NCBI GenBank assembly: GCA_000146045.2
Contig: BK006940.2
Coordinates: 128,001-192,000 of the forward strand
DNA from: TPA_inf: Saccharomyces
Taxonomy: Eukaryota
Direction of reading: 5' to 3'
Length of the DNA stretch: 64,000 nucleotides
Each line of letters begins with the position of its first letter. Position 1 is the stretch's first letter. A program made the position numbers and the translations under genes. Positions 2,982 to 63,613 of the stretch are shown here, one piece after another. The notes below the pieces were generated by a model, which saw nothing but the letters and a program-made list of their open reading frames with translations, did not search any database and had not been told where the DNA came from.

Positions 2982-3498
2982 AGAAAAGAAGATTTTTGCT
3001 TCTTTGAGAATTAATCGTGAACTGGAATTAGAGCTATAAATCGCTTGATTCTTTTTTCCCTTTTTCTCAATATTCGCAGGTTATTTTTCCTTTATATATA
3101 TACATTGTTTGTATCTTTTTTTGATTACCATACTTACTATTTTTATATTAGTCATATTAGATGTCACTTTTATATTATCTAAACAATTCAAACTTCTCAC
3201 ACTAACTTTTTCAGCATACTTCTACTGTTGTTCTCTGCTCTGGAAGGTATTTTCATCAGGCGATTGGTAAAAAATCAAGAAAGAATCTAAAAAATAGTGC
3301 AACAGGAAAACGAGGTTCCCAGTTTCCCTGGGAATTCTTATCCAAGTATATATTTTACTTTTAAGATTCAGCACTTTTATTTCGTTCTAATGTTTTTACC
3401 GGTAGTAAAGTTTTGCTTCTTGAATCCACTATTCAACTACTTGCGCTTATGTAAGGTTCCTGTATGGTTGCATAATCACTCAATTCGAAAAAAAAACC

Positions 3499-3504
3499 CA
3501 CGTG
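3499..3504. promoter_or_regulatory. CACGTG E-box about 305 bp upstream of the VTC2 ATG; candidate Pho4/Cbf1 site
   Basis: Exact palindromic CACGTG in the VTC2 5' region. VTC genes are phosphate-responsive. Confidence 0.3.
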
Positions 3505-6520: not shown

Positions 6521-9157
6521 TTATTCTTCAAAATTTTCGATGAAGTCGGAGTTTATTTCTTTTAATTTCCCTAAAGTCAAGGGCTCTTTTTCATTTCCTG
6601 CACATTCTTTCAATATCGCTACAAGATTGTGTATTCTCTTCATTTGGTTTATGGTCTTTTGATCAACAACGCCATTTGAATCTTCGTTTTCAGTCCTTGC
6701 TTTTGCAATTTTCAAAAGCGAATGGATATTGTACGCTTCTGCAATAATATCCGGGTTGAATATTTTTTTTACCACCCTTATTCCACTATTCTCTATTGCG
6801 ACAGATTTCTGGGTCAACTGATAATTCATTTTGACAGAATTGTCATTGAGAAGGACTGCATCCATATGAAGATGGGAAACTGCTGGCTTCTTAGACATTA
6901 TTTTAGGAATGTCCTGGAAGTGTGTAGAAAGAAATACCGTTGCCTCCGTTCGAAGTAAATGTTCAGTTACTGCCAAAGACACACAAAACCCATCAGCGAT
7001 GCTTGAACCACGACCAAGTTCATCTAAAATTAACAGTGTTTCTGTATTTATGTCATCTAAAAAGTAAGCCATTTCTTTCATTTCAAAACCAAAATTTGAT
7101 GAGGTTAATTCCATACTGTCATTGCAGACTCTTGCATGTAGACGTTTAAAGACAGGAAAAGACCCATAAAGTGCCGGTATACCTGATCCCATTTGGGCCA
7201 TTATGCAAATAAGGGCAACTTGTTTTAAATAAACAGATTTTCCACTCATGTTGCATCCGGTTATGATTTGTAAGCTGGAGCTATGTTTTGTACTTGATAT
7301 GGTGTTAGGGACAAAATTTTTTAGTACCTTTTCAAGTAGTGGGTGTCTTGAATCTCGAATTAGTAGATTGTTTGTAAAAATCGGTATTGTGTAATTATTT
7401 TCTTTCAAATTATATGTGAATGAACAAACCAAATCCAGGATAGCCACTGCTTCTGCAATCATAAATAGTTCAGAAATATGGGTTGCAATTTTATCGAGCA
7501 GTTCATCAACTGTCTCTTCACTTAAAAGTAAAATCTCTTCCATAACTTCCTTCAACCTCGCATTTTTTTTTATTATATTTAGGGTTGTACATTCAATATA
7601 ATTTTTTTTTATTGTTCTTGAAATGAATACGTCTGGAAGTGTAGCGACGTCATCGGTAAATTCCTGTCTTTTTATTCTGAGATAAAAGCCTCGTGCAGAA
7701 TCGTAATTATGATCTAAATTGATTTTGTTTTTAGCGGTAAGATCTTCTACCTCACGAAAAAATTCCTCTTTTACCTCTTTGTAGATTTGTCTAGAAACAT
7801 CCAAAAGCCCATTGGAATCACTTTTCACAGCATATGAACGTTGGTTAAGTAGTTGTATAGCTGAGGATGCCCAGACACAGTCTTCATTTATACAACTATT
7901 AATTAATTTTTCAATTTCCATAATTGCGTCATTATTGAATATTTTTTTGGTCTCGCTAATTAAACGGCTTTGAATTAACTGATCATTAAGTGCGTCTTTC
8001 AATGACTTCACGCTTTGTAAAGTTTCCTTTAGCAACAAAACGTAATTAATTCTTTGGTCAGGTTTTATTGCAGAATGATTAATGCATAATAACCTTGAAA
8101 ATAACTTATCTAGATCAGGCAATGATTTCATTTCTAGCCTTAATTTTTGTAGAAGGTCATCATTGGCTTTCAATTCTTCTAGGGCCTCTAGTCTCATTTC
8201 GATACTGCCCCTATCAGTTAATGGCTGCAGTATACTGTTCCGAAGTGATCTTTGTCCCATTTTAGTGGACGTGGTATCCAAGAACTTCCATAGTGATATG
8301 CCATTCTTATCCAATTTATTTTCTACAAGTTCTAAACCTCTGACGGTTTTAGAATCAATCAGCATTGTATTTTCTGTTCCTTCAAACTGTATACGTAGTT
8401 TTCGAAACGCATTCAAATTTCGGCTGCTTTTGGATATAATCTCTTCCATGTAGCTTATCGCAGCAGATGCAGCACAAAGAGCAAACGTTTTATCTATAAT
8501 CTCCTCGATTTTCAAGTCCTTTTTTGTATCATCCATTAAATACTTTGTAATCGCCGCCAGTCCATCTTGGCTATTGAAGCACTTTCGTGAACCCTCTTCA
8601 ATTTTAACTGTCTCGGCCACATTAAATTTTATCATTGTCGCTAATTTTGATACTGTTGGAGCTAGAGAACTGCTTGGAATCAGTATTTCCGTAGGTTGGT
8701 AAATTTGGAGTTTATGAACTACACGAATGTAAATTTGTGAATCCATGAAATCTGAAAGATACATCTGTCCCGTGTTACAGTTGATAATACATAACCCAAT
8801 CCGCGTACTTATGTCTCTTGGCACTTCGTATATGCAACAAAGAACACAGTCAATACTAGGACCGAGGAGTGAAGCGTTGGTGCTGTATCGACTTAAGGAG
8901 GTTGCGGTCCTAGAGGCCATTGATCCAGTCATTAAGTAATGGCTATGTGTTGAATCTTTTTCATTGTTTTCCCATGTTGTCTCTGCTATTTGTAGCGTTT
9001 TCTTTTTGAGAGCCCAACTACTTATGTTAGTTGGCGATTTTTGGTTCCTGATACTCTTTTTCGTACTTGGCTTCGAAATAGAGTTTGAAGAATTAGCCGC
9101 CGACCTTAAATTGAAATAATTTGTACTGATAAAACTAGATAGATTAGATTCACTCAT
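6521..9157 (-). CDS. MSH4: Meiosis-specific MutS homolog (MutSgamma subunit), 878 aa from the second in-frame ATG
   Basis: MutS domains including Walker A GCNMSGKS and the ILDELGRGS motif. The track ORF (890 aa) extends 12 codons upstream of the MSESNLSS start, which gives the 878-aa length. Confidence 0.9.
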   Translation of the reverse strand: MSESNLSSFISTNYFNLRSAANSSNSISKPSTKKSIRNQKSPTNISSWALKKKTLQIAETTWENNEKDSTHSHYLMTGSMASRTATSLSRYSTNASLLGPSIDCVLCCIYEVPRDISTRIGLCIINCNTGQMYLSDFMDSQIYIRVVHKLQIYQPTEILIPSSSLAPTVSKLATMIKFNVAETVKIEEGSRKCFNSQDGLAAITKYLMDDTKKDLKIEEIIDKTFALCAASAAISYMEEIISKSSRNLNAFRKLRIQFEGTENTMLIDSKTVRGLELVENKLDKNGISLWKFLDTTSTKMGQRSLRNSILQPLTDRGSIEMRLEALEELKANDDLLQKLRLEMKSLPDLDKLFSRLLCINHSAIKPDQRINYVLLLKETLQSVKSLKDALNDQLIQSRLISETKKIFNNDAIMEIEKLINSCINEDCVWASSAIQLLNQRSYAVKSDSNGLLDVSRQIYKEVKEEFFREVEDLTAKNKINLDHNYDSARGFYLRIKRQEFTDDVATLPDVFISRTIKKNYIECTTLNIIKKNARLKEVMEEILLLSEETVDELLDKIATHISELFMIAEAVAILDLVCSFTYNLKENNYTIPIFTNNLLIRDSRHPLLEKVLKNFVPNTISSTKHSSSLQIITGCNMSGKSVYLKQVALICIMAQMGSGIPALYGSFPVFKRLHARVCNDSMELTSSNFGFEMKEMAYFLDDINTETLLILDELGRGSSIADGFCVSLAVTEHLLRTEATVFLSTHFQDIPKIMSKKPAVSHLHMDAVLLNDNSVKMNYQLTQKSVAIENSGIRVVKKIFNPDIIAEAYNIHSLLKIAKARTENEDSNGVVDQKTINQMKRIHNLVAILKECAGNEKEPLTLGKLKEINSDFIENFEE

Positions 9158-9485
9158 TGCATATAGTTTGCGTTGATCAGCTACAGATTTCAATGCTATA
9201 ACTAGTTATTTTTATATGTTTCACTTTAAGTAAAATCCAACTGCTCTTTTGCTATTCTTCGTTGATGCCTTATATGTATGAAAGCTGTACGTTCGGGATT
9301 TGAAAAGGAAATGAAGACGCGAATTAAAAAAAAATAATAAACTGGTTCATAGCAGAAAAGAGGAGACTAAATAAGATTTTGCTCTCATACAGATGCAACA
9401 CATAAAAACTTTAATCGATTTCAGTATGGAAAAAGATATGATACAATAAAATCTAAATCTTAGAAACTGATTTTGAATAAAAAAA

Positions 9486-9559
9486 CGACCCCAGTGAGGG
9501 TTGAACTCACGATCTTGCGATTAACAGTCGCACGCCTTAACCAACTTGGCCATGGAGTC
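9486..9559 (-). tRNA. tN(GUU)F: tRNA-Asn (anticodon GUU), 74 nt, no intron
   Basis: Reverse complement reads GACTCCATGGCCAAGTTGGTTAAGGCGTGCGACTGTTAATCGCAAGATCGTGAGTTCAACCCTCACTGGGGTCG. Cloverleaf with GTTCAAC T-loop and anticodon loop CTGTTAA. Confidence 0.92.
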
Positions 9560-9660
9560 AGTCACTTTTGAGTTCTGCAACTCTTAAAACGGAATAGACT
9601 ACGTAAAACAATGTCATCCCATACCAAAACAATCCTGATTTCTCAAAGGCATCGCAAACC

Positions 9661-9912
9661 TCTGGAATAAAAATCCACTATCATCTATCAACTAATAGTT
9701 ATTCAATATATTATCATATACAGTGTTAGATGATGACATAAGTTATGAGAAGCTGTCATCGAAGTTAGAAGAAGCTGAAATGCAAGGATTGATAATGTAA
9801 TAGGATAATGAAACATATAAAACGGAATAGTCTAACATTAGTATGTAGAAATATGGATTCCATTTTGAGAATTCCTAAATCCTCGAGGAGAACTTCTAGC
9901 ATATTCTGTATA
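9661..9912 (+). repeat. 5' portion (252 bp) of an older solo delta LTR that the Ty2 insertion interrupts
   Basis: Delta-like sequence with a degenerate TGTTGGAATA start, diverged from the Ty2 LTRs. Ends at the GTATA target-site duplication abutting the Ty2 5' LTR. Confidence 0.75.
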
Positions 9913-10244
9913 TGTTGGAATAAAAATCAACTATCATCTACTAACTAGTATTTACGTTACTAGTATATTATCATATACGGTGTTAGAAGATGACGCAAAT
10001 GATGAGAAATAGTCATCTAAATTAGTGGAAGCTGAAACGCAAGGATTGATAATGTAATAGGATCAATGAATATTAACATATAAAATGATGATAATAATAT
10101 TTATAGAATTGTGTAGAATTGCAGATTCCCTTTTATGGATTCCTAAATCCTCGAGGAGAACTTCTAGTATATCTACATACCTAATATTATTGCCTTATCA
10201 AAAATGGAATCCCAACAATTACATCAAAATCCACATTCTCTACA
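9913..10244 (+). repeat. Ty2 5' LTR
   Basis: Starts TGTTGGAATAAAAATCAAC, ends ...CTCTACA immediately before the PBS. Identical over its length to the 3' LTR. Confidence 0.9.
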
Positions 10245-11520
10245 TGGTAGCGCCTATGCTTCGGTTACTTCTAAGGAAGTCCCATCAAATCAAGATCCGT
10301 TAGCCGTTTCAGCTTCCAATTTACCGGAATTTGATAGAGATTCCACTAAGGTTAATTCTCAACAAGAGACAACACCTGGGACATCAGCTGTTCCAGAGAA
10401 CCATCATCATGTCTCTCCTCAACCTGCTTCAGTACCACCTCCACAGAATGGACAGTACCAACAGCACGGCATGATGACCCCAAACAAAGCTATGGCCTCT
10501 AACTGGGCACATTACCAACAACCGTCTATGATGACGTGTTCACATTATCAAACGTCACCTGCGTATTATCAACCGGACCCACACTATCCGTTGCCACAGT
10601 ATATCCCACCACTGAGTACTTCCTCACCTGATCCAATCGATTCACAGAATCAACACTCTGAAGTACCTCAAGCTGAGACAAAGGTGAGAAATAACGTCTT
10701 ACCACCACACACTTTAACATCAGAAGAAAACTTTTCTACATGGGTTAAATTTTACATCAGATTTTTGAAGAACTCTAATCTCGGTGACATCATTCCAAAT
10801 GACCAGGGTGAAATCAAAAGTCAAATGACTTATGAAGAACATGCGTATATATACAATACCTTCCAAGCATTTGCCCCATTTCATTTATTGCCAACATGGG
10901 TAAAACAAATTTTAGAAATTAATTATGCTGACATCCTTACAGTCCTTTGTAAAAGTGTGTCCAAAATGCAAACTAACAATCAAGAATTAAAGGATTGGAT
11001 AGCTCTTGCCAACCTTGAGTACGACGGAAGTACATCTGCTGATACATTTGAAATTACAGTCAGTACGATCATTCAGAGGCTAAAAGAAAACAATATCAAT
11101 GTTAGCGACAGATTGGCCTGTCAACTAATACTTAAAGGTCTATCCGGTGACTTCAAATACCTACGTAATCAATATCGTACCAAAACGAACATGAAACTTT
11201 CCCAATTATTCGCTGAAATTCAGTTAATATATGACGAAAATAAAATCATGAATCTAAATAAACCGTCCCAATACAAACAACACAGCGAATACAAAAATGT
11301 TTCTCGCACATCTCCAAACACGACTAACACAAAGGTTACAACTCGTAATTATCATAGAACAAATAGTTCAAAACCAAGAGCAGCAAAAGCTCACAATATT
11401 GCTACATCTAGTAAATTCTCAAGGGTGAACAATGATCACATTAATGAATCAACCGTTTCATCACAATACTTAAGCGATGACAACGAACTTAGTCTTAGGC
11501 CAGCAACAGAAAGAATCTAA
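10204..11520 (+). CDS. TYA: Ty2 TYA (Gag capsid protein), 438 aa; the ATG lies inside the 5' LTR as in Ty1/Ty2
   Basis: ORF track plus homology to Ty Gag ([27 protein letters not shown]). Confidence 0.9.
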
Positions 11521-14500
11521 GCCAACACACACAATAGACTCGAATGACGAACTACCTGATCACCTTCTTATTGATTCAGGAGCTTCGCAAACGCTTGTCA
11601 GATCAGCCCATTATTTACACCATGCAACACCCAATTCTGAAATAAACATAGTCGATGCTCAAAAACAAGACATTCCTATAAATGCCATTGGTAATCTTCA
11701 CTTCAACTTTCAGAACGGCACCAAAACATCAATAAAAGCACTACACACACCAAACATAGCCTATGATCTATTAAGTTTGAGTGAGCTGGCTAATCAAAAT
11801 ATTACTGCCTGCTTTACCAGAAACACTTTAGAAAGATCGGATGGTACAGTACTAGCTCCCATAGTCAAACATGGAGACTTTTACTGGTTATCTAAAAAAT
11901 ACCTAATTCCTTCGCACATTTCAAAGCTAACAATAAACAACGTCAACAAAAGCAAAAGCGTAAATAAATATCCATATCCGTTAATACATCGAATGCTTGG
12001 ACATGCTAACTTCCGAAGTATTCAGAAGTCTCTTAAGAAGAATGCAGTTACATATTTGAAGGAATCGGATATTGAATGGTCTAACGCTAGCACATATCAA
12101 TGTCCTGACTGTCTAATCGGCAAAAGCACGAAACATAGACATGTCAAAGGATCACGACTAAAGTACCAAGAATCATATGAGCCTTTTCAGTACTTGCACA
12201 CCGATATATTTGGTCCTGTACATCACTTACCGAAAAGTGCACCTTCTTACTTTATATCGTTTACAGATGAGAAAACCAGATTCCAATGGGTGTACCCATT
12301 ACACGACCGTCGTGAAGAATCTATCCTCAATGTTTTTACATCGATATTAGCATTTATTAAGAACCAATTCAATGCTCGCGTTCTAGTTATCCAGATGGAT
12401 CGTGGCTCCGAGTACACTAACAAAACTCTTCATAAGTTCTTTACGAACAGAGGTATTACTGCATGCTATACAACCACGGCAGATTCTAGAGCACACGGTG
12501 TCGCTGAACGATTAAATCGTACTTTATTAAACGATTGTCGCACACTGCTTCATTGCAGTGGTCTACCAAATCATCTATGGTTCTCAGCAGTCGAATTTTC
12601 TACTATAATCAGAAATTCATTAGTCTCACCAAAAAACGATAAATCTGCAAGACAACATGCAGGTTTAGCTGGACTGGACATTACTACTATACTACCTTTC
12701 GGTCAACCGGTTATAGTTAACAACCATAATCCCGACTCGAAAATACATCCTCGTGGCATTCCAGGTTACGCCTTACATCCGTCACGAAACTCTTATGGCT
12801 ATATTATCTATCTTCCATCATTAAAAAAGACAGTAGATACTACCAATTACGTTATATTACAAGACAAGCAATCCAAATTGGACCAATTCAATTATGATAC
12901 ACTCACCTTTGATGATGATCTCAATCGTTTAACAGCCCATAACCAATCTTTTATTGAACAAAATGAAACGGAGCAGTCATATGATCAAAATACAGAATCT
13001 GATCATGACTATCAATCGGAGATTGAAATAAACTCTGATCCTCTAGTGAACGACTTCTCGTCCCAATCAATAAACCCTTTACAATTAGACAAGGAACCAG
13101 TCCAAAAAGTACGTGCACCAAAAGAAGTTGATGCCGACATATCTGAATACAATATTCTTCCATCTACTATACGATCTCGTACACCCCATATCATTAATAA
13201 AGAGAGTACCGAAATGGGTGGTACCGTTGAATCAGATACTACTTCACCTAGACACTCGTCTACCTTCACTGCACGAAACCAAAACCGACCTGGTAGTACC
13301 AATGAGATGATTGATTTGACCTCACAGGATAGAGTTAATTATGGACTTGAAAACATCAAAACTACACGTTTGGGTGGTACGGAGGAACCATATATTCAAC
13401 GAAATAGTGATACAAATATCAAATACAGGACTACAAATAGTACGCCCTCAATAGATGACCGTTCGTCCAACAGTGAATCCACTACTCCCATCATCTCCAT
13501 AGAAACAAAGGCTGTATGTGATAATACACCCTCCATTGATACGGATCCGCCAGAATATCGATCTTCTGACCATGCGACTCCTAATATAATGCCTGACAAA
13601 TCCTCAAAAAATGTTACGGCTGATTCTATTCTTGACGACCTCCCACTTCCTGACTTAACCCATAAATCTCCTACGGACACTTCTGATGTTTCAAAAGATA
13701 TTCCACACATACACTCTCGTCAGACTAATTCCAGTTTGGGTGGTATGGATGATTCTAATGTTCTGACTACTACCAAAAGTAAGAAAAGATCATTAGAAGA
13801 TAATGAAACTGAAATTGAGGTATCCCGAGACACATGGAATAATAAGAATATGAGAAGTCTGGAACCACCAAGATCGAAGAAACGCATAAATTTAATTGCA
13901 GCAATAAAAGGAGTGAAATCGATCAAACCAGTTCGAACGACCTTAAGATATGATGAAGCAATTACATATAATAAAGACAACAAAGAAAAAGACAGATATG
14001 TTGAAGCTTATCATAAAGAAATTAGCCAACTATTGAAAATGAACACTTGGGATACAAACAAATATTATGATAGAAATGACATAGATCCTAAAAAAGTAAT
14101 AAACTCAATGTTTATATTTAACAAGAAACGTGATGGTACACACAAAGCTAGATTTGTTGCAAGAGGCGACATTCAACACCCCGATACATATGATTCTGAT
14201 ATGCAATCCAATACCGTACATCACTATGCACTGATGACGTCACTGTCAATCGCATTAGACAACGACTATTATATCACACAGCTGGACATATCCTCTGCTT
14301 ACTTATATGCTGATATCAAAGAAGAATTATACATAAGACCTCCACCACATTTAGGTTTGAATGATAAATTACTACGTTTGAGAAAATCACTCTATGGTTT
14401 GAAACAAAGTGGTGCAAACTGGTATGAAACCATTAAATCATATTTAATAAATTGTTGCGACATGCAAGAAGTTCGCGGATGGTCATGCGTATTTAAGAAT

Positions 14501-15517
14501 AGTCAAGTAACAATTTGCTTATTCGTTGATGATATGATATTATTCAGCAAAGACTTAAATGCAAATAAGAAAATCATAACAACACTCAAGAAACAATACG
14601 ATACAAAGATAATAAATCTGGGTGAAAGTGATAACGAAATTCAGTACGACATACTTGGATTAGAGATCAAATATCAAAGAAGCAAGTACATGAAATTAGG
14701 TATGGAAAAATCCTTGACAGAAAAATTACCCAAACTAAACGTACCTTTGAACCCAAAAGGAAAGAAACTTAGAGCTCCAGGTCAACCAGGTCATTATATA
14801 GACCAGGATGAACTAGAAATAGATGAAGATGAATACAAAGAGAAAGTACATGAAATGCAAAAGTTGATTGGTCTAGCTTCATATGTTGGATATAAATTTA
14901 GATTTGACTTACTATACTACATCAACACACTTGCTCAACATATACTATTCCCCTCTAGGCAAGTTTTAGACATGACATATGAGTTAATACAATTCATGTG
15001 GGACACTAGAGATAAACAATTAATATGGCACAAAAACAAACCTACCAAGCCAGATAATAAACTAGTCGCAATAAGCGATGCTTCATATGGTAACCAACCA
15101 TATTACAAGTCACAAATTGGTAACATTTTCCTACTCAACGGAAAAGTGATTGGAGGAAAGTCGACAAAGGCTTCGTTAACATGCACTTCAACTACAGAAG
15201 CAGAAATACACGCAGTCAGTGAAGCTATTCCGCTATTGAATAACCTCAGTCACCTTGTGCAAGAACTTAACAAGAAACCAATTATTAAAGGCTTACTTAC
15301 TGATAGTAGATCAACGATCAGTATAATTAAGTCTACAAATGAAGAGAAATTTAGAAACAGATTTTTTGGCACAAAGGCAATGAGACTTAGAGATGAAGTA
15401 TCAGGTAATAATTTATACGTATACTACATCGAGACCAAGAAGAACATTGCTGATGTGATGACAAAACCTCTTCCGATAAAAACATTTAAACTATTAACTA
15501 ACAAATGGATTCATTAG
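11477..15517 (+). CDS. TYB: Ty2 TYB (Pol: protease, integrase, RT, RNase H), made as a Gag-Pol fusion by +1 frameshifting; coordinates are the +1-frame ORF
   Basis: [10 protein letters not shown] aspartic protease, integrase HHCC zinc-binding region and DD35E core, [12 protein letters not shown]-terminal RNase H region. Confidence 0.9.
11491..11497 (+). promoter_or_regulatory. +1 ribosomal frameshift heptamer CTTAGGC at the TYA/TYB overlap
   Basis: Exact CUU-AGG-C (AGG is a rare Arg codon) near the end of TYA, within the 44-nt overlap with the +1-frame TYB ORF. Confidence 0.85.
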
Positions 15518-15539
15518 ATCTATTACATTATGGGTGGTA

Positions 15540-15871
15540 TGTTGGAATAAAAATCAACTATCATCTACTAACTAGTATTTACGTTACTAGTATATTATCA
15601 TATACGGTGTTAGAAGATGACGCAAATGATGAGAAATAGTCATCTAAATTAGTGGAAGCTGAAACGCAAGGATTGATAATGTAATAGGATCAATGAATAT
15701 TAACATATAAAATGATGATAATAATATTTATAGAATTGTGTAGAATTGCAGATTCCCTTTTATGGATTCCTAAATCCTCGAGGAGAACTTCTAGTATATC
15801 TACATACCTAATATTATTGCCTTATCAAAAATGGAATCCCAACAATTACATCAAAATCCACATTCTCTACA
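15540..15871 (+). repeat. Ty2 3' LTR
   Basis: Identical to the 5' LTR and followed directly by the GTATA TSD. Confidence 0.9.
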
Positions 15872-17113: not shown

Positions 17114-18934
17114 TTATAAGTCGTCAAAATTGCCTTGGATAGCTTTGCTGGAAACTTTCTTCCGTTTATTCTGTAAAACGATTTCTTTCCAATCCTCTTT
17201 AATACGCTCTTCTTCAGCATTTTCATCGAGCTCTTCTGCTTTCAATTCTTCCTCTATAGCCTTCCTTTTTAAACTCATCTTTTCCTTTCTCTCGAGTTTC
17301 CGTTCTTTCGTCAATGTTTTATCTGACCACGCTAAATTCTTCTTCTTCAACTCACTTTTCAGCTTCTTTTTATCATTAATCAGGCTTATATTTTTTAATG
17401 TTTCTTGTCTCTCCTTTTCACGTTTTTTGTCCTTGTATTTATATTCATCCATATTAACTGGGGGATCGACCAACCAATTCCCTGGGAAAATCCCTTCTTG
17501 TTTTTCGGTGGCTAAGTACTTTGTTATCTCAGGCATTCTAGGCAGGCGGAAAAGACCATACAATTTCGCAATACCAACATAATCTAAAGATTGAAGCCTA
17601 AAAATTGAAGTTGCGGAATGATTTGAGTAGTATTTAATAAAGGCAACATATGCTTTAACACCTTTATCAAATCTATCCCTATCTTCTAGTATCCAATTTC
17701 TAAAGTCCTCGTAAAAGTTTGTTGTTATGCCCTTTACTTCCAAATCAAGTTCTTCAAGTTCCACATTTTTAACTTGCATGAAAGGAATAAAATCCTCTTC
17801 TCTGCCTTCATTAAGAAACGTAATTGCTTTACCCACTCTATTTGCTCTACCAGTTCTACCACATCTATGCATGAACATATCAGTATTGGTAGGGGGATCA
17901 AGCTGGATGACGAGATCAACGTCGGGTATGTCAATACCTCTAGCAGCCACATCTGTTGTGAATAAAACAGAATTACTTAGCGAATCAGTAAAAGCTGTTA
18001 GAGTTTTTGTCCTTGCCGATGTTTGAAGTTTTCCATGCAAGGAAAATATTTCTACTTCATTCACGAGAATATTCCTCTTTCCCAAATACTGGATAAATGA
18101 GTAGAAGTAGGAGACTGACACACATGTTGGAAAATATACAATACATTTCTTGAATTTGTAGTTATTCAAAATGCTAACCAAAAGTTGTAGTTTTTCGGCA
18201 GGATTTACGACACAGTAATTTAATTTCAAAGAGGAGGGCGCCTGGTTCTTAGAGTTAACGGTAATCCTGACAGGATTTCTAAGCCCTGTCTTAAAGATAT
18301 CTGATCCGGCGCTACGCATAGTTGCAGAAAATAGACCCGTCCTTCTTTGTTTAGGCAATAGCCTCAGAATTTTTTCGGTATCCTTAATAAAACTCATATC
18401 CAACAATCTGTCTGCTTCATCCATAACTACCATACTGCATGCTGACGTCTTTACTGCTGGCATTTGTAAAAAGTCCAAAACTCTACCAGGTGTTCCAATC
18501 AGAATCTGCGGTCTATTCCGCAGAAAATTACTTACATCATCTCTAACTGTGGCTTCATTAGTACCAACCAGGAGCTGACATTTAATAGGGAACAAGTCGG
18601 AAGGATAATGTTCCAGAAATGATAGAACGACAGACTCAATTTGGCGTGACAATTCTCTTGTTGGAGCAATAATTAACGAGTGGAAGTGTGCTTTCTTGAA
18701 TTTTGATGTATTCGCTTCTTCCTTTACAACTTTTTCTAGTACAGGTATAACAAACGCAGCGGTCTTACCTGAGCCTGTTACAGAATCAACTACTACATCC
18801 TTGTTGCCAGCAAGCATGGGAATTGTCGATGCTTGGACTGGAGTCATGGTCTCAAAACCCATAACATCGAGTCCTGTCCTTATCCAGGGAAGTAAAGAAA
18901 ACCCGAGATTATCCCATTCCAATGACTTTGACAT
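17114..18934 (-). CDS. SPB4: DEAD-box ATP-dependent RNA helicase for 60S ribosomal subunit biogenesis, 606 aa
   Basis: Q-motif, Walker A TGSGKT, DEAD (VMDEADR), SAT and HRCGRTGR motifs. Lys/Glu-rich C-terminal tail. Length matches SPB4. Confidence 0.92.
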
Positions 18935-19130: not shown

Positions 19131-20459
19131 ATGAGTAATTTCATTAGAAGGCTAGTTGGGAAAATGAAAGCGATTTCAACAGGTACCAATGCTATTGTTA
19201 GTAAGAAGGACTCCATTTACGCAAACTGGTCCAAAGAGCAGCTAATACGAAGGATCACTGAACTAGAAAACGCAAATAAGCCACATTCTGAAAAATTCCA
19301 GCACATCGAGGATAACAAAAAGCGCAAAATTTCGCAAGAAGAGGTTACGAGAAGCAAGGCGAAAAAGGCTCCGAAGAAGTTTGACTTTTCTAAACATAAT
19401 ACCAGGTTCATCGCCTTGAGATTTGCCTATTTGGGATGGAATTACAATGGCTTAGCTGTTCAGAAGGAATACACACCGTTGCCTACAGTAGAGGGTACCA
19501 TTTTGGAGGCCATGAATAAGTGTAAACTTGTTCCCTCGATGGTTTTACAAGACTATAAATTTAGCAGATGTGGCAGAACAGACAAGGGAGTTAGCGCCAT
19601 GAACCAAGTTATATCGTTAGAAGTCCGTTCCAATTTAACAGATGAGGAACAGCGGGATCCGACCAACGACAGCAGGGAAATACCCTATGTTCACGTTTTA
19701 AATCAATTACTACCCGACGATATTCGTATATCAGCTGTCTGCCTCAGACCGCCACCTAACTTTGACGCAAGATTCAGCTGTGTTCACCGGCACTATAAGT
19801 ACATCTTTAATGGAAAAAACCTTAATATTGAAAAAATGTCTAAAGCCGCATCATATTTTGTTGGAGAGAGAGACTTCAGGAATTTTTGTAAGCTTGATGG
19901 CTCAAAACAAATTACCAATTTTAAACGAACAATAATAAGCTCAAAAATTCTTCCCCTTTCTGAAACTTTCTATTGTTTTGATCTCGTTGGTTCAGCATTC
20001 CTATGGCACCAAGTTCGTTGCATGATGGCCATTCTTTTCTTAGTTGGTCAATCACTTGAAGTGCCGGAAATTGTCTTGCGTCTGACTGATATTGAGAAAA
20101 CCCCTCAAAGGCCTGTTTACGAAATGGCAAATGATATACCATTATTGTTATATGATTGTAAATTTCCTGAAATGGATTGGCAAGAACCTACTGTAGATGA
20201 CTATAAGGCAATAAAATTCACGACAGCTACTGAAGCATTGACGTTACACTACGAACTTAAGGCCGCAGTATGCAATATTTTTAAAGATGTTTTGCCCACA
20301 GCAAATACAAACAACTTCTCAAAGACAATTATTAATTTGGGCGATGGAAGAGGTAAAGTAGTCGGTACCTATGTGAAACTAGAGGATAGAAGCGTTATGG
20401 AACCTGTCGAAGTTGTTAATGCTAAATACTCCAAGAAAAAGAACAACAAAAATAAGTAA
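19131..20459 (+). CDS. DEG1: tRNA pseudouridine(38/39) synthase, TruA family, 442 aa
   Basis: TruA-like catalytic region (GRTDKGVSA with catalytic Asp). Length and position next to CEN6 match DEG1/PUS3. Confidence 0.9.
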   Translation: MSNFIRRLVGKMKAISTGTNAIVSKKDSIYANWSKEQLIRRITELENANKPHSEKFQHIEDNKKRKISQEEVTRSKAKKAPKKFDFSKHNTRFIALRFAYLGWNYNGLAVQKEYTPLPTVEGTILEAMNKCKLVPSMVLQDYKFSRCGRTDKGVSAMNQVISLEVRSNLTDEEQRDPTNDSREIPYVHVLNQLLPDDIRISAVCLRPPPNFDARFSCVHRHYKYIFNGKNLNIEKMSKAASYFVGERDFRNFCKLDGSKQITNFKRTIISSKILPLSETFYCFDLVGSAFLWHQVRCMMAILFLVGQSLEVPEIVLRLTDIEKTPQRPVYEMANDIPLLLYDCKFPEMDWQEPTVDDYKAIKFTTATEALTLHYELKAAVCNIFKDVLPTANTNNFSKTIINLGDGRGKVVGTYVKLEDRSVMEPVEVVNAKYSKKKNNKNK

Positions 20460-20509
20460 AATAATATATAAACCTGTATAATATAACCTTGAAGACTATA
20501 TTTCTTTTC

Positions 20510-20628
20510 ATCACGTGCTATAAAAATAATTATAATTTAAATTTTTTAATATAAATATATAAATTAAAAATAGAAAGTAAAAAAAGAAATTAAAGAAAAA
20601 ATAGTTTTTGTTTTCCGAAGATGTAAAA
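20510..20628 (+). other. CEN6: Point centromere CEN6: CDEI ATCACGTG (20510-20517), CDEII 85 bp with >90% A+T (20518-20602), CDEIII ~TGTTTTTGTTTTCCGAAGATGTAAAA (20603-20628) with the essential CCG at 20615-20617
   Basis: Textbook tripartite budding-yeast centromere architecture, lying between DEG1 (YFL001W) and LOC1 (YFR001W) at the L/R arm boundary. Confidence 0.93.
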
Positions 20629-20988
20629 TAGGTTGAAAGTTAGAAATTAGTATTATAATAGCAAAAAAAATTTAAAGTTAGAAATTAGAATTTAAGGCTC
20701 TACACACGTTTACGATGATATTGGACGACCGACACGAAAAGACAGTTTTAGGCTTTCTTTTGTCTTGCTCTTGCGTTGAAAGTACGTAATTTCCATTCGA
20801 TTACTTACTCAACACTTGATATAGAGACCAACTATAAAATAAACTGTTTGGGAAGGAAAGCAGAACTCTTGTAATTACCTCATCTCATTATCAAGAAGCA
20901 AAATTTTAACTATGTATTTTGACCTTATTTTTGTACTCCACTTTTTTTTTTTAGTTTTTTTTAGTTATTTTTTAATTTTGAAGTAACG

Positions 20989-21103: not shown

Positions 21104-21724
<621 letters not shown>

Positions 21725-22015: not shown

Positions 22016-24535
22016 ATGCTGGAGACGTTGCGCGGAAATAAGCTGCATTCTGGCACCTCAAAAGGCGCCAACAAAAAGTTGAATGAACTCTTGGAATCGT
22101 CCGACAATCTACCATCAGCATCCTCTGAATTAGGTTCAATTCAAGTAAGCATTAATGAATTGAGAAGACGTGTTTTTCAATTGAGAAGCAAGAACAAAGC
22201 TAGCAAGGACTATACTAAAGCCCACTATTTATTGGCTAACAGTGGCTTAAGCTTTGAAGATGTTGATGCTTTCATCAAAGACTTGCAGACGAATCAATTT
22301 TTGGAACCAAATCCACCAAAAATAATTGAAAGTGAGGAATTAGAATTCTATATAAGAACTAAAAAGGAAGAAAACATTTTGATGTCTATCGAACAGCTTT
22401 TAAATGGCGCTACAAAAGATTTTGATAATTTTATTAATCATAACTTAAATCTTGATTGGGCTCAGCATAAAAATGAAGTCATGAAAAATTTTGGCATCCT
22501 TATACAAGATAAGAAAACTGTAGATCACAAAAAATCCATCAGTTCTCTAGACCCTAAGCTTCCAAGCTGGGGTAATAAGGGCAATAACATTTTAAATAGC
22601 AACGAATCCAGATTGAATGTCAACGAAAATAATATCCTTAGGGAAAAGTTTGAAAATTATGCCAGAATTGTGTTTCAATTTAACAATAGTAGACAAGCAA
22701 ATGGAAATTTTGATATAGCCAACGAATTCATCTCAATATTATCTTCTGCGAACGGAACAAGAAACGCTCAATTGCTAGAGAGCTGGAAGATTCTCGAATC
22801 GATGAAAAGTAAGGATATTAATATTGTTGAAGTCGGGAAACAGTACCTGGAGCAACAGTTTTTACAATATACCGACAATTTATATAAGAAAAACATGAAT
22901 GAAGGATTGGCCACAAATGTCAATAAAATCAAGTCATTCATTGATACGAAGTTGAAGAAAGCAGACAAATCATGGAAGATTTCTAATTTAACTGTTATCA
23001 ATGGTGTTCCAATATGGGCCTTAATATTTTATCTTTTAAGAGCAGGTCTAATCAAGGAAGCATTGCAAGTTCTAGTGGAGAATAAGGCGAATATCAAAAA
23101 AGTAGAACAATCATTCCTTACTTATTTCAAAGCATATGCTTCTTCAAAGGACCACGGCCTACCAGTGGAATATTCCACCAAGCTTCATACAGAATACAAC
23201 CAACACATAAAAAGTTCACTAGATGGTGATCCTTATCGTCTAGCTGTCTACAAGTTGATCGGAAGATGCGACTTGAGTAGAAAGAACATTCCTGCAGTTA
23301 CTTTAAGCATTGAAGATTGGTTGTGGATGCATCTCATGTTGATCAAAGAAAAGGACGCGGAGAATGATCCTGTTTATGAAAGATATTCCTTAGAAGACTT
23401 CCAGAATATAATAATATCGTATGGACCATCTCGCTTCTCAAACTATTACTTACAGACCCTTTTGTTAAGTGGGCTCTATGGATTGGCTATTGACTATACT
23501 TATACATTTAGTGAAATGGATGCGGTGCATTTGGCAATAGGGCTAGCAAGCTTGAAGCTATTTAAGATTGATAGCTCAACGCGCTTGACCAAAAAACCCA
23601 AAAGGGATATCAGGTTCGCAAACATACTAGCTAATTATACCAAGTCCTTTAGGTATTCAGATCCTAGAGTTGCTGTCGAATATTTGGTTTTAATAACTCT
23701 AAATGAAGGACCTACCGATGTCGAGTTATGCCATGAGGCGTTGAGGGAGCTAGTATTGGAAACTAAGGAATTTACTGTTCTTTTGGGTAAAATTGGACGC
23801 GATGGAGCTAGAATTCCGGGGGTGATCGAAGAAAGACAACCTTTATTACACGTTCGTGATGAAAAGGAGTTTTTGCATACAATTACAGAACAAGCAGCAA
23901 GAAGGGCAGACGAAGACGGCAGAATATATGATAGTATATTACTGTACCAGCTTGCTGAAGAATATGACATAGTTATTACCCTCGTCAATAGTTTATTAAG
24001 TGATACACTTAGTGCGTCAGATTTAGATCAACCATTGGTTGGACCTGATGACAATAGCGAGACGAATCCTGTCTTGTTGGCTAGGAGGATGGCGTCCATA
24101 TATTTTGATAATGCTGGTATATCGAGACAGATTCATGTTAAAAACAAAGAAATTTGTATGCTGCTCTTAAATATCTCCTCTATCAGGGAGCTATATTTCA
24201 ATAAACAATGGCAAGAAACACTATCCCAAATGGAGTTATTGGATTTACTTCCTTTCTCAGACGAGCTATCTGCTAGAAAGAAAGCACAAGATTTCTCTAA
24301 TTTAGATGACAACATTGTGAAAAATATTCCAAATTTGTTGATTATCACTCTAAGCTGTATATCGAACATGATTCATATCTTGAACGAAAGTAAGTATCAA
24401 TCGTCCACAAAAGGTCAACAAATTGATTCCTTAAAAAATGTTGCGAGACAATGTATGATTTATGCTGGTATGATTCAATACAGAATGCCAAGGGAAACGT
24501 ACAGCACTTTAATTAATATAGACGTCTCTCTATGA
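22016..24535 (+). CDS. NIC96: Nuclear pore complex linker nucleoporin, 839 aa, from the MLETLRGNK start; the track ORF starts 10 codons upstream
   Basis: N-terminal coiled-coil region and large alpha-solenoid body. Length matches NIC96 (YFR002W) using the second ATG. Confidence 0.88.
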   Translation: MLETLRGNKLHSGTSKGANKKLNELLESSDNLPSASSELGSIQVSINELRRRVFQLRSKNKASKDYTKAHYLLANSGLSFEDVDAFIKDLQTNQFLEPNPPKIIESEELEFYIRTKKEENILMSIEQLLNGATKDFDNFINHNLNLDWAQHKNEVMKNFGILIQDKKTVDHKKSISSLDPKLPSWGNKGNNILNSNESRLNVNENNILREKFENYARIVFQFNNSRQANGNFDIANEFISILSSANGTRNAQLLESWKILESMKSKDINIVEVGKQYLEQQFLQYTDNLYKKNMNEGLATNVNKIKSFIDTKLKKADKSWKISNLTVINGVPIWALIFYLLRAGLIKEALQVLVENKANIKKVEQSFLTYFKAYASSKDHGLPVEYSTKLHTEYNQHIKSSLDGDPYRLAVYKLIGRCDLSRKNIPAVTLSIEDWLWMHLMLIKEKDAENDPVYERYSLEDFQNIIISYGPSRFSNYYLQTLLLSGLYGLAIDYTYTFSEMDAVHLAIGLASLKLFKIDSSTRLTKKPKRDIRFANILANYTKSFRYSDPRVAVEYLVLITLNEGPTDVELCHEALRELVLETKEFTVLLGKIGRDGARIPGVIEERQPLLHVRDEKEFLHTITEQAARRADEDGRIYDSILLYQLAEEYDIVITLVNSLLSDTLSASDLDQPLVGPDDNSETNPVLLARRMASIYFDNAGISRQIHVKNKEICMLLLNISSIRELYFNKQWQETLSQMELLDLLPFSDELSARKKAQDFSNLDDNIVKNIPNLLIITLSCISNMIHILNESKYQSSTKGQQIDSLKNVARQCMIYAGMIQYRMPRETYSTLINIDVSL

Positions 24536-24656: not shown

Positions 24657-25124
24657 TCAGTCCTTCTTTTCCTGCTGTTTTCGCCTGTATTCAGAATAAT
24701 CTGGTTGGATTTCATAAGCATTGGGGCTATATGACCTTTTTTTCTCAAGTTTACGATGGCGCCTTTCCAATCTTCTTTGTCTACGTTCGTTAAAGTCAAG
24801 ATCCTTCTCATTCTCAGATTCTGAAGAAGAGGATCCGGAAGAAGAGGATCCATCATCATCTGAATGATGGTTGCACTCTTCTTCATCCTCATTTTGTGGA
24901 TGAAAAATGCAGCATATCTTGGTCTTTTTTTTATTCATGTTTTCATTGTCAATCACATTTTCTTCCCATCTTACATTGTGCCTTGTAGGCATTGCCTCCT
25001 GGCTTCTTGGAGGATCTTGAGTTGCTCGAAGCTGCAAAACTGCGGGAACCTCTTCCACACTCACCGTTCGGGACCCTACGGTCTGTTGTTGTTCTGATCC
25101 CATAGCCATTTGATTTCCACTCAT
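24657..25124 (-). CDS. YPI1: Type-1 protein phosphatase (Glc7) regulatory subunit, inhibitor-3 family, 155 aa from [10 protein letters not shown]
   Basis: [11 protein letters not shown] (RVxF-like V-R-W) and CCIFH motif typical of PPP1R11/Ypi1. Acidic/Ser-rich tail. The track ORF is 11 codons longer. Confidence 0.85.
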
Positions 25125-25268
25125 CCTTATAGACTTAATTGAAGACTTAGCTCGCAACTCCTGGCAGTTATAAGCTCTTGGGACCCTTGACTCGAATTGT
25201 TTCTAAATGATAAATACGGCCCCTTGTTTATACTGAAACGCACGTCGCTGATGATTTCGGACCTCCAA

Positions 25269-25392: not shown

Positions 25393-26313
25393 ATGGAACG
25401 ACTACAGAGATTGATGATGAATAGTAAGGTGGGGTCCGCGGACACCGGCCGTGACGATACGAAAGAAACTGTTTATATTTCTTCGATTGCGCTTTTAAAG
25501 ATGCTAAAGCATGGTAGAGCTGGTGTTCCCATGGAAGTCATGGGGTTGATGTTAGGTGAGTTTGTCGATGATTATACGGTTAACGTTGTGGACGTGTTTG
25601 CGATGCCTCAATCGGGTACCGGAGTTTCTGTTGAGGCTGTCGATGATGTTTTCCAAGCGAAGATGATGGACATGTTAAAACAAACGGGCAGAGACCAAAT
25701 GGTCGTTGGCTGGTACCACTCTCATCCAGGGTTTGGCTGTTGGCTATCTTCTGTTGATGTTAATACTCAAAAATCTTTTGAACAACTAAACAGCAGAGCT
25801 GTTGCTGTCGTTGTTGACCCTATTCAATCCGTTAAGGGAAAAGTTGTCATCGATGCTTTTAGATTGATTGACACGGGCGCATTGATAAATAACTTAGAGC
25901 CTAGACAAACAACCTCCAACACAGGCTTATTGAACAAGGCCAACATTCAAGCCTTAATTCACGGTCTGAATAGGCATTACTATTCTTTAAATATTGATTA
26001 TCATAAAACCGCGAAGGAAACCAAGATGTTAATGAACTTACATAAAGAACAGTGGCAATCAGGTCTTAAGATGTACGATTATGAAGAAAAAGAAGAATCA
26101 AATTTGGCTGCTACAAAGAGTATGGTTAAGATAGCCGAACAGTACTCTAAGAGAATAGAAGAGGAAAAGGAATTAACCGAAGAAGAACTTAAGACAAGAT
26201 ACGTTGGTAGGCAAGATCCAAAGAAGCACCTTTCCGAAACAGCAGATGAGACACTAGAGAACAATATTGTTTCTGTGCTGACGGCGGGTGTTAATTCAGT
26301 GGCAATTAAATAA
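25393..26313 (+). CDS. RPN11: 26S proteasome lid deubiquitinase (JAMM/MPN+ metalloprotease), 306 aa
   Basis: JAMM motif [14 protein letters not shown] and upstream Glu. Length matches RPN11. Confidence 0.95.
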
Positions 26314-29915: not shown

Positions 29916-30007
29916 TGCGAATTCTGTGGATCGAACACAGGACCTCCAGATAACTTGACCGAAGTTTTTTCTTCAGTCTGGCGCTCTCCCAACTGAGCTA
30001 AATCCGC
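29916..30007 (-). tRNA. tF(GAA)F: tRNA-Phe (GAA) with a ~19-nt intron, 92 nt
   Basis: Reverse complement reads GCGGATTTAGCTCAGTTGGGAGAGCGCCAGACTGAAGA-[intron AAAAACTTCGGTCAAGTTA]-TCTGGAGGTCCTGTGTTCGATCCACAGAATTCGCA, the classical yeast tRNA-Phe. Confidence 0.93.
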
Positions 30008-30404: not shown

Positions 30405-30680
30405 GTTATTGGCATATTATCATATGCGGTTCAGGAAGATGACATAAAAGTTGAGAAACAGTTATCAACCCTAATGGAAGCTGAAATGCAAGATTGATAA
30501 TGTAATAGCATAATGAAACATATAAAACGGAATGGGGAATAATCGTAATATTATTATGTAGAACTACCGATTCCATTTTGAGGATTCCTACATCCTCGAG
30601 GAGACTTCTAGCATATTCTGTGTACATAATATTATGGTCTTGATCAACAATGCAATCCCAACAGTTATCAAATTATTCAG
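30405..30680 (+). repeat. 5'-truncated degenerate delta LTR remnant upstream of tF(GAA)
   Basis: Similarity to the delta interior (ATTATCATATgCGGTtcAGgAAGATGACAtAAA..GCTGAAAtGCAAGATTGATAATGTAATAG..ATCCTCGAGGAG) and the 3' end. Confidence 0.6.
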
Positions 30681-33579: not shown

Positions 33580-34134
33580 TACTATTAATATATTTTCATA
33601 TAATTAGTATAATCTCATATACGCTGCCAGAAGATAACATGAAAATTAAGAAACAATCATCAGCTTCAATGGAAGTTGAAGTGCAAGGATAAATAATACT
33701 ATTTAGAAATATGGATTTTCCCTCGTTGACTAGAAGATCTGTGAAGATTGGGTGAATAGTTTAATAATTATTGGATCCCATTATTGATCAAGGCTATAAT
33801 ACTTGACTATTTGGCGAATTTTGAGATAATTGTTGGGATTCCATTGTTGATAAAGGCCATAATATTATGTATACAGGATATACTAGAAGTTCTCCTCGAT
33901 GATATAGGAATCCTCGAAATGGAATCTATATTTCTACATACTAATATTACGATTATTCCTCATTCCGTTTTATATGTTTCATTATCCTATTGCATTATCA
34001 ATCCTTGCACTTCAGCTTCCTCTAACTTCGATGACAGCTTCTCATAACTTATGTCATCATCTTTACACCGTATATGATAATATATTGATAATATAACTAT
34101 TAGTTGATAGACGATAGTGGATTTTTATTCCAAC
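33580..34134. repeat. Two adjacent delta LTR remnants: a plus-strand fragment (~33580-33825) and a near-full minus-strand delta (~33826-34134), about 95 bp upstream of tG(GCC)
   Basis: The minus-strand copy reads rc-delta from GAGATAATTGTTGGGATTCCATTGTTGATAAAGGC... to ...GATAGTGGATTTTTATTCCAACA. The plus fragment matches the delta interior. Confidence 0.7.
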
Positions 34135-36746: not shown

Positions 36747-36965
36747 TTATTTAGGAAGCACCTCAGAATATATTTTCCATAGAAGCCTAAATTAAGTATG
36801 CATTCATAGCCCCATGATACTTTTTTTTTTTGACTACTTGTATTGGAATCTAATTGACCTAACTGGGCATTCTGGGTCATTGGTATATGTATCACTTTTT
36901 ACGTAAAAAAGTAGTGGCTAATATAAAACATAAAATCTACAAGAAGGGTGAAGTGCTTTTCGAAT

Positions 36966-49041: not shown

Positions 49042-52000
49042 TTAAATAGTATCGTAAATGAGTTCCCGCAATTTGTAGTCTTCGTTAGCTTCTTCTATTT
49101 CTTCCCAGTTCCCGATTAAGTCATTGTGTCCTCTGACCACACCTGGAAGACTCCTACCCTTGCTGAAAGTCTTCCAAACTTTTCTCGCTTCATCATCTGT
49201 GCCAAGATCTCTGTAGGTGAACGGGATTCGGTTGGCCGTCAGGATTGTGCTTAAGCGATTTGTTCTGGGGATCATATGGAAACCGCCTCCGGCTAGTGAC
49301 GTGTATATATATACAGGTTCCTTTTCATTCAGCTTCCGGATCTCGCTAGTCGTTATTACGTCTTGTGGCTTGTCATTGTTTTTCTTGGATTGCTCAGTAG
49401 TTTGAGTTGTGGAGTCTTTCGCATCTAGTGATTGGAGTAGAGCGTTTAGTTCAGAATCATCAACAATTTTTAGTTGCTCTAAAAACTCATTCGTTTCGTC
49501 CAAAATATCTTTGAAGATGTCATCTGCACTTGCTTTCTTGGGATTTTCCCTTGTACTTTGATCTTCAAATCCATTTTCGTCATTGTTTGGGGCTTCTTTA
49601 CTGATTGACTCTGTTTCATTGAAGTCTAACTGGGATACCTCCTCTTCTTCTTGCTTAATTTCATTCTTTTCCTCCGTGATGTTTTCTTCCACTACAAGAT
49701 CAGGAAGAGAAGTTTCTTTCTCTGTTTCTTCTACTTCCAATTCCTTGTCTTCTCCTTTATTATCCTTTATATCTTGTTTTTCCAATTCTGGCAATTCGAC
49801 TGTCCTTTGAAATTCGTCTGAAATGTTGATATCGTCGATCTCTTGATCTCCGGTGACATCTTTGAGCGCCTCAGCAATCTTAGAATTTTCCATATTCTCG
49901 TCTTCTTTTGTCACGGCTTCCGCATCCTTTTTTGAAACTTCTGCCTCCGTACATGTTCCATCCTCTATTGGAGTCTCAGCAGGTTCCGAACATTTTGTTT
50001 CGATGTCTTCTTTTGAAGTTGCAGCAACTTCCACATCTTCATTTTCTTTATTCAGTTCAGCAGTGACTTCTGCCTCTTTTGGAGCGTCAAGATTTCCAAG
50101 CTCTGCCTTTACCTTGATAAATTCAGTTTTTTCGGAATTCTCCACTTCTGCATCTTCCTCGGTGTCAACTTCCACATCTTCATTTTCTTTATTCAGTTCA
50201 GCAGTGACTTCTGCCTCTTTTGGAGCGTCAAGATTTTCAAGCTCTGCCTTTACCTTGATAAATTCAGTTTTTTCGGAATTCTCCACTTCTGCATCTTCCT
50301 CGGTGTCCTTCTTGACAGATTCGCTGCTAGGTTCTATATATTTTTCGGCAGTTCCAACATCACTTGCTTTTGAATTTTCGCTCGCAGCCTCAGTAGCTTC
50401 ACCATGTTCATGATTTGTATCTTTGCCGGTGATTTTATCGCCTTCTTGTGTAATTTCAAAGCGTTTGGGTTTTTCTTCTTCTTTGAAACTAGTAGTAGAT
50501 CCTACATCTCCCATATCCTTTTGTGTAGTTTCAGCTTGTTCTGTTGAAATTTGAACGCGCTGGGATTTGGGATCTTCTTCTTCGGAATTCTCAATGGTTG
50601 TTGCAATTTCTGGCTTTACATCTTCATCGGGAACTCTAACATCTTCCTTTAGAACCTCAGGATCTCTTTCGTTGATTTGAAGATCTTCTGGTCTTCCGGA
50701 GGTACAACGCTTAACTACTTTTGGAGACTCAGGAGTCTTCGATTTCTCAACCTCTACACCTTCTGCACTTTCTCTTGCTGTTTCATCAACCTCTTTTTTT
50801 GCTTTCTCGTTGGAAAGCTCAGCAGTCCCCTCTTGCTTCTTTTTCATGTCTTCACTGATAGACTCAGCACCTCTCATTGCTATTTTATCATCTTTCATGG
50901 CCTTAACAGGTTCATCCAGCTTGACTTGTTCCCCTTCTTGATCTTCTTTGGCAACCTCGAGATCTTCAGGTATTATATTTTTTTCCACAGCCTCAACAAT
51001 CTCTACATCATCCCTAGGCGCGTCAGGTATATCGATTTCTCCGACAACTTCCGTAGGCTTGTTTTCCTGAGTAGGTGCTTCAGCTTCATCTTCAAGAACA
51101 AGGTTATCTTTAGAAATTTTTGCAGAGTTTGCGCTTCCCTCTATTTCAATAATGGAAGATTTTTCTCCCGCTTCTGACTGCTTTTCATCTCCCCCCATAA
51201 TTTCCTCTCCTTTTGATGTAGATTCTTCTTCGGTACCGGACACTTCATTATTTCTTACAGCTTCTTGCTCCCCGGTTACATTTTCTTTTTTAACTTTTGA
51301 AAAAGTCGAATTTTCTTCTTCTTCTTCTTCTTCTTCTTCTTCTTTTTCAACTTCTACAGATATATCGTTAGTACCGTGTTGTAGATTTTTTTCATTGTCA
51401 CTAATGCGCTTTGTTGGTCCCATCGTTTCGTCATCATAAGTCTCTCGCTCAGTTTCTGGAGGGATGATACTATCACTACCAGCTGCGTTAAAATTATGGC
51501 TCATGTTATTCTCATGATTAACAGATAATTCTTTCCTACATTTTTCGTCTTCTTTATCCTTCTGTTCAAAAACATGGTCTTCTTTCCCGATTTCTGTTTC
51601 TTTCTGATTTTTTGCAAGAACTGAAGGACTTATTCCGTCTCTATCACTTTCAGTCTGCTGCTTTTCCCCAGCTTTCAAATGTTTTGATTCGTTCTCTTTG
51701 AAATTAAACCCATTCTTAGTTAAACTTTCACTTTCAACATCCTTAGTAGACGCTTGCCCATTTTCATCACCTGCCTCCAAACCGTGCGGCTCTAGTTGGT
51801 GTTTAAAAGAAGCTGCATTTCCCTCATTAACATTTAAGATCTCATTCTCTTCTCGAGGTAAGGTATGTTCTGCCTTTTCCTCGTTGATATTGTTCTCGGA
51901 CTTTGAGGAAGTTTCGTCAACATTATCTTTGTTAGGCACATCTATGTCGAAGGTTTTGTCACTAGATTCATTTCTGGTTCTGATATCCATTTTTTCGACA

Positions 52001-63512: not shown

Positions 63513-63613
63513 CGTCACAGACAGGATTCGAACCTGCGCAGGTAAAACCCAATGCCTAATTGCTTTTCTGAGGAAATAGCAGGGCATCGCCTTAACCACT
63601 CGGCCACTGGGAC
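63513..63613 (-). tRNA. tS(GCU)F: tRNA-Ser (GCU) with 19-nt intron, 101 nt
   Basis: The reverse complement gives GTCCCAGTGGCCGAGTGGTTAAGGCGATGCCCTGCTA-[intron TTTCCTCAGAAAAGCAATT]-AGGCATTGGGTTTTACCTGCGCAGGTTCGAATCCTGTCTGTGACG, with a long variable arm typical of a class II Ser tRNA. Confidence 0.85.

Follow-up and report, generated by a model that had tools for sequence, protein, structure and literature searches.

A point centromere between DEG1 and LOC1 that matches CEN6 of Saccharomyces cerevisiae chromosome VI

The window, the whole 64-kb stretch of DNA analyzed here, contains a 650-bp intergenic spacer between DEG1 and LOC1 (Table 1). DEG1 forms the left flank and is transcribed toward the centromere element in the spacer, and its stop codon is 50 bp ahead of CDEI. 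LOC1 forms the right flank, with its ATG 482 bp past CDEIII. Between them, CDEI, CDEII and CDEIII follow one another on the + strand.

Table 1. Positions of the centromere element, its flanking genes and the orthologous centromeres in two other species. Positions are those of the window unless a contig handle (L007, L008) is given.
Feature	Position	Strand or orientation	Description
SPB4	17114-18934	-	Matches an S. cerevisiae PDB chain of equal length from end to end
DEG1 (YFL001W)	19131-20459	+	99% identity to Deg1p of S. cerevisiae YJM1332; database sources give YFL001W DEG1
CDEI	20510-20517	+	ATCACGTG; E-box CACGTG, site of the Cbf1 bHLH-zipper dimer according to the literature
CDEII	20518-20602	+	85 nt; 53 A, 27 T, 4 G and 1 C; 94.1% A+T (script count)
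CDEIII	20603-20627	+	AGTTTTTGTTTTCCGAAGATGTAAA; 25 bp; CBF3 site according to the literature; CCG at 20615-20617
LOC1	21110-21724	+	204/204 residues match S. cerevisiae LOC1 PDB chains (7nac_7)
NIC96	22016-24535	+	End-to-end match to S. cerevisiae PDB entry
Ypi1-like ORF	24657-25157	-	Pfam PPI_Ypi1 on the orthologous gene
RPN11	25393-26313	+	End-to-end match to S. cerevisiae PDB entry
S. kudriavzevii orthologous centromere	L007 4375-4492	CDEI nearest DEG1	GTCACGTG, 84-bp CDEII, TTTCCGAAG
S. eubayanus orthologous centromere	L008 4421-4538	CDEI nearest DEG1	GTCACGTG, 84-bp CDEII, TTTCCGAAG

The names of the flanking genes place the spacer on chromosome VI. In the systematic nomenclature, YFL001W denotes the left-arm ORF of this chromosome that is closest to the centromere. 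The identification of DEG1 as YFL001W, together with this rule, points to the centromere-adjacent spot of chromosome VI, exactly as observed. The gene on the other side, LOC1, we take to be YFR001W. The element is therefore located between YFL001W and YFR001W, the location of CEN6. The orthologues of DEG1 in S. kudriavzevii and S. eubayanus carry chromosome-6/F locus tags (SKDZ_06G... and ..._0F...). The strands of the genes in the window agree with what we take to be the W/C suffixes of their systematic names, and therefore the + strand of the window is the Watson strand. The element runs from CDEI to CDEIII on this strand, in agreement with the orientation listed in Table 1 of PMC3141009 ('6+'). 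The window is an S288C-like piece of chromosome VI in Watson orientation.

The three elements were compared with the published definitions of a point centromere. CDEI conforms to RTCACRTG, an 8-bp near-palindrome (PMC10381965; PMC3364953). CDEII has a length and an A+T content inside the defined ranges of 78-86 bp and 87-98% A/T (PMC3364953). Its left half is mixed A and T, and its right half is A-rich on the + strand. CDEIII has the expected length of about 25 bp and a central CCG within TTCCGAA (20613-20619, from reading of the sequence and a script count), on the CDEII-distal side. It contains a partial dyad centered on C20616 (TTC-C-GAA), in which 7 of the 11 flanking pairs are complementary. 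The total length depends on where CDEIII is taken to end. If CDEIII is given its usual 25 bp (PMC3364953), the element spans 20510-20627 and measures 118 bp. With a 26-nt version, AGTTTTTGTTTTCCGAAGATGTAAAA at 20603-20628, it spans 20510-20628 and measures 119 bp. Both values fit the 117-119 bp of 14 of the 16 centromeres and the overall range of about 111-120 bp (PMC10381965). One such element is expected per chromosome, and a single copy was found within the 64-kb window.

An earlier note on this DNA had described a complete CDEI-CDEII-CDEIII point centromere, and the anatomy, the presence of the CCG and the uniqueness of the element in the window (see below) bear this out. The note had singled out the CDEII length and the CCG triplet as the points on which its proposal would stand or fall. 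On recount, both are as it proposed, the CCG being present and the 85 bp of CDEII lying between 78 and 86 bp. The length of 119 bp that it gave holds with its 26-nt CDEIII and becomes 118 bp under the usual definition. Its description of CDEIII was partly correct. The core and the CCG are there, but the string that it quoted, TGTTTTTG..., is absent from the window, where position 20603 is A and not T. The misread base belongs to the edge where the element is least conserved. The CDEIII consensus has T at position 1, and this position is A in the window.

A comparison with the CEN6 sequence, as the earlier note had suggested, was carried out by a literal-sequence search. Positions 20509-20628 are an exact match, 120 of 120 nt, to a plasmid sequence with the pPtGE30 backbone (appendix of PMC10706280). 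Past the 120 nt, the plasmid runs on into unrelated cassette DNA, and the match stops at the edge of the fragment. The pPtGE30 backbone carries CEN6-ARSH4-HIS3 (PMC11492738). The interval given in the earlier note is therefore the vector CEN6 fragment, to the base. CEN6-ARSH4-HIS3 vectors with the identical 120 nt have been assembled and selected in yeast (PMC10706280; PMC11492738). A BLAST search of the PLSDB plasmid collection with 20400-20750 returned no match; this collection evidently does not include yeast shuttle vectors. Compared to S. cerevisiae CEN6, the CEN part of the CEN6-ARSH4 cassette in pRS- and pPtGE30-type vectors, the element is alike over the 120 nt, in its DEG1 and LOC1 flanks and in its + orientation. 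No difference was detected, save a 1-nt shift of the end if CDEIII is counted as 25 bp.

We are nearly certain that 20510-20627 (or 20628) on the + strand is CEN6, the point centromere of S. cerevisiae chromosome VI. The name CEN6 appears well placed, supported by the identity with the vector cassette, by the database names of the genes and by the position of CEN6 in SGD, which we take to be chrVI 148510-148627. The placement on chromosome VI in the earlier note is thus upheld by the 120-nt identity and the flanking genes. CEN6 is already known, textbook biology. It is among the best-studied eukaryotic DNA, and the widely used pRS-type CEN vectors have it as their centromere. Cottarel et al. 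(1989; cited in PMC3364953), judging by its title, reportedly found a 125-bp CEN6 fragment to be sufficient; together with Panzeri and Philippsen (1982), it is said to be the original work on CEN6. In the window, CEN6 serves as an anchor, from which the neighboring features can be read with the existing chromosome VI annotation; no new biology follows.

Conservation of the element was analyzed in six S. cerevisiae-like contigs with an identical LOC1 protein and the same neighbors (L001-L006), five of them natural and one (L006) synthetic, and in S. kudriavzevii and S. eubayanus. A point centromere is found at the same site and in the same orientation in all six contigs and in both species. CDEI is invariant in the six contigs, and TCACGTG is retained in the two species. 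All eight of the aligned Saccharomyces sequences share an unchanged TTTCCGAAG, and TTCCGAA is likewise invariant. The five natural alleles are like the window in position, orientation, CDEI and TTCCGAA core, and their CDEII measures 82-85 bp and contains at least 90% A+T. They differ from it by up to 14 substitutions and 2 indel columns per 85 bp of CDEII, and some of these strains carry G instead of T at CDEIII position 3 and A instead of G at position 20. The two strains that diverge most have differences at 9-14 positions among the 85 of CDEII (10-16%), versus 11-13 among the 482 adjacent intergenic positions (2.3-2.7%) and 10-12 among the 1329 positions in DEG1. The evolution of CDEII is therefore several-fold faster than that of the DNA on either side. 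Rapid evolution of CDEII has been published (PMC3155921). The centromeres of S. kudriavzevii and S. eubayanus resemble CEN6 in their location between DEG1 and LOC1, their orientation and the two conserved motifs listed in Table 1. However, their CDEII cannot be aligned with that of the window and has an A+T content of 85-86% by the boundaries chosen here, and the outer part of CDEIII differs. A conserved CDEI and CDEIII around a fast-evolving CDEII, at a syntenic site, is thus the pattern across the six contigs and the two species.

In the synthetic contig (GCA_033956085.1, CP135953.1), a 119-mer is identical to CEN6 in the window. This contig contains loxPsym sites (ATAACTTCGTATAATGTACATTATACGAAGTTAT) at 2288, 2529 and 3619. 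They are located 3 nt past the stop codons of DEG1 and LOC1 and 42 nt to the right of CEN6. This layout identifies the contig as a synthetic (Sc2.0-type) designer chromosome VI.

The neighborhood is arranged differently in more distant yeasts. T. delbrueckii and N. bracarensis have SPB4, DEG1, SNF8, HAT1, a candidate centromere and LOC1 in succession, which gives a putative ancestral order. The candidates are located after HAT1, not after DEG1 (T. delbrueckii, L011 ~7090-7230; N. bracarensis, L009 ~6700-6830). They were found in a relaxed scan by eye as an A+T-rich tract beside a T(T/C)CCGAA core. Unlike CEN6, they have imperfect CDEI-like boxes (TCACCTG and TTACGTG) and other spacer lengths. 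A strict regular expression, CDEI-N60-200-CDEIII, found no centromere at the K. africana, N. bracarensis and T. delbrueckii loci, and the relaxed scan gave no convincing candidate within 7.3 kb in K. africana. In S. cerevisiae, SNF8 and HAT1 flank CEN16. The placement of the candidates after HAT1 would be consistent with the origin of CEN6 and CEN16 from one ancestral centromere, Anc_CEN8 (PMC3141009).

This common origin bears on the question of whether the element could be another point centromere and not CEN6, such as the paralogous CEN16, or one from a different Saccharomyces strain or species. All 16 centromeres have the CDE plan, and CEN6 and CEN16 share an ancestor (PMC3141009), but we consider such an assignment very improbable. 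The flanks are the chromosome VI set, SPB4-DEG1 on one side and LOC1-NIC96 on the other, and not SNF8-HAT1, which adjoin the candidate centromere in the non-duplicated relatives. As to a different strain or species, CDEII is identical to that of the CEN6 cassette and of the synthetic contig, differs from those of the other S. cerevisiae strains, and is unalignable with those of S. kudriavzevii and S. eubayanus.

CEN6 stands out from the rest of the window in sequence. A deliberately loose composite pattern, TCACGTG-N70-95-TTCCGAA, has a single match, both strands counted, versus 0.01 expected from dinucleotide shuffles of the 64-kb window. The 85-mer with the fewest G/C in the window is 20519-20603, which contains 4, and the next best elsewhere contains 13. 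There are 59 windows of 85 nt with at least 87% A+T; all of them start at 20488-20546, and none is found elsewhere in the 64 kb. The sequence TGNTTTCCGAA is found at CDEIII alone within the window. RTCACRTG (or CACGTG) and TTCCGAA each recur separately elsewhere in the window and are never combined. These counts confirm that the element is real and unique within the window. Homopolymer runs of A or T in this single CDEII are not above those in composition-matched shuffles (runs of at least 4, P = 0.49; runs of at least 5, P = 0.11).

The same counts bear on whether the spacer could be ordinary A+T-rich intergenic DNA, made up of the DEG1 terminator or 3' UTR and the region upstream of LOC1, with a Cbf1 E-box like those of Cbf1-regulated promoters and a chance TTCCGAA and without centromere function. 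CACGTG and TTCCGAA are each present several times elsewhere in the window, and the 650-bp spacer must also house the 3'-end signals of DEG1. However, the ordered composite is expected at the low frequency given above, and the tract between its two ends is the sole A+T extreme of the 64 kb. The CEN6 fragment in yeast centromeric vectors has the same 120 nt. Other species have kept CDEI, CDEIII, their spacing and their orientation at the syntenic site, but not the spacer sequence. We regard this explanation as even less probable than the assignment to another centromere, to the point of being negligible. No more credible is a replication origin (ARS) in place of a centromere in the A+T-rich tract: yeast origins are A+T-rich intergenic elements and centromeres replicate early, but the 11-bp ARS consensus WTTTAYRTTTW is absent from 20510-20628 and its vicinity (its two matches in the window are both on the minus strand, starting at 36935 and 39736), and in the vector cassette the origin function is provided by a separate ARSH4 beside the CEN6 fragment. 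We found no evidence against the CEN6 reading.

A further proposal in the earlier note, that the centromere explains the dense, recombination-cold arrangement of genes around it, was not supported as to density. ORF coverage is 0.70-0.78 within 2.5, 5 and 10 kb of CEN6, versus 0.77 in the whole window, and a full-length Ty element is found at a distance of only about 4.7 kb. Because the coverage near CEN6 equals that of the window, the gene-dense layout is a property of the genome and not of the centromere. Near yeast centromeres, breaks and crossovers are suppressed in a kinetochore-dependent manner (PMC4749563); crossover suppression cannot be read from the sequence.

We infer from the literature how 20510-20627 (or 20628) binds proteins and functions in segregation. 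A Cbf1 homodimer would bind to the E-box in CDEI. The CBF3 complex, composed of Ndc10, Cep3, Ctf13 and Skp1, would bind to CDEIII, with the Gal4-type zinc cluster of Cep3 reading the essential CCG. Cbf1, CBF3 and the Scm3 chaperone would jointly place a single Cse4/CENP-A nucleosome on the A+T-rich CDEII. The CCAN and the outer kinetochore would be built on this Cse4 particle and would capture one microtubule. Several published observations underlie this picture. Cbf1 recognizes CAC(A/G)TG, the Cse4 nucleosome wraps CDEII, and two CCAN modules are built on this particle (PMC10381965). The essential CCG contacts the Gal4-type domain of Cep3 (PMC2132615; PMC10381965), and point mutations in it raise chromosome loss 100-1000-fold (PMC2132615). 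The classical point mutations of CDEI and CDEIII were made in CEN6 (PMC3141009).

Cbf1 and CBF3 may also act as transcriptional roadblocks, which is pertinent here as DEG1 faces CDEI from a distance of 50 bp. Both have been found to block incoming transcription (PMC9371891); DEG1 is not named in that paper. It is conceivable, if rather unlikely, that the formation of the DEG1 3' end depends on this roadblock, that read-through from DEG1 makes up part of the CEN6 cenRNA, and that DEG1 expression is coupled to the occupancy of the centromere, or the reverse.

Directly to the right of CDEIII, an imperfect short direct repeat, AAAGTTAGAAATTAG, starts at 20636 and 20674 (region 20629-20700). The repeat is kept among the aligned S. 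cerevisiae strains. Its position is within the extended zone of CBF3/Ndc10 contacts that PMC2132615 describes.

Several additional features were observed in the window. A full-length Ty LTR retrotransposon is located at 9911-15837, about 4.7 kb to the left of CEN6. Its identical LTRs are at least 300 nt long and have a spacing of 5627 nt. Its TYA ORF occupies 10204-11520 and overlaps the pol ORF at 11477-15517, which encodes integrase and RVT_2 domains. The retrotransposon adjoins a tRNA-Asn gene (9485-9560, minus strand). The 438-aa TYA suggests that the retrotransposon is presumably a Ty2. Three delta-type LTR remnants, at 9707-9806, 30413-30512 and 33608-33707, are diverged and have 61-86% identity to a segment of the Ty LTR. 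Each is near a tRNA gene, the usual mark of past Ty insertion upstream of Pol III genes. Five tRNA genes are found in the window, including those at 9485, 34228 and 52974. The other two, at 29916-30007 and 63513-63613, both on the minus strand, were missed by ARAGORN and detected with Rfam (56.7 and 45.6 bits, respectively). They are 92 and 101 nt long and probably contain introns. At 3061-3503 on the minus strand, between two ORFs, there is a full-length match of 455.8 bits to Rfam RF01824 (RUF20, 'RNA of unknown function 20'). Finally, a 141-nt unit is tandemly duplicated at 50025-50306 with 99% identity. The duplication is located within a 1233-aa ORF (49042-52743, minus strand) and creates an in-frame repeat of 47 residues.
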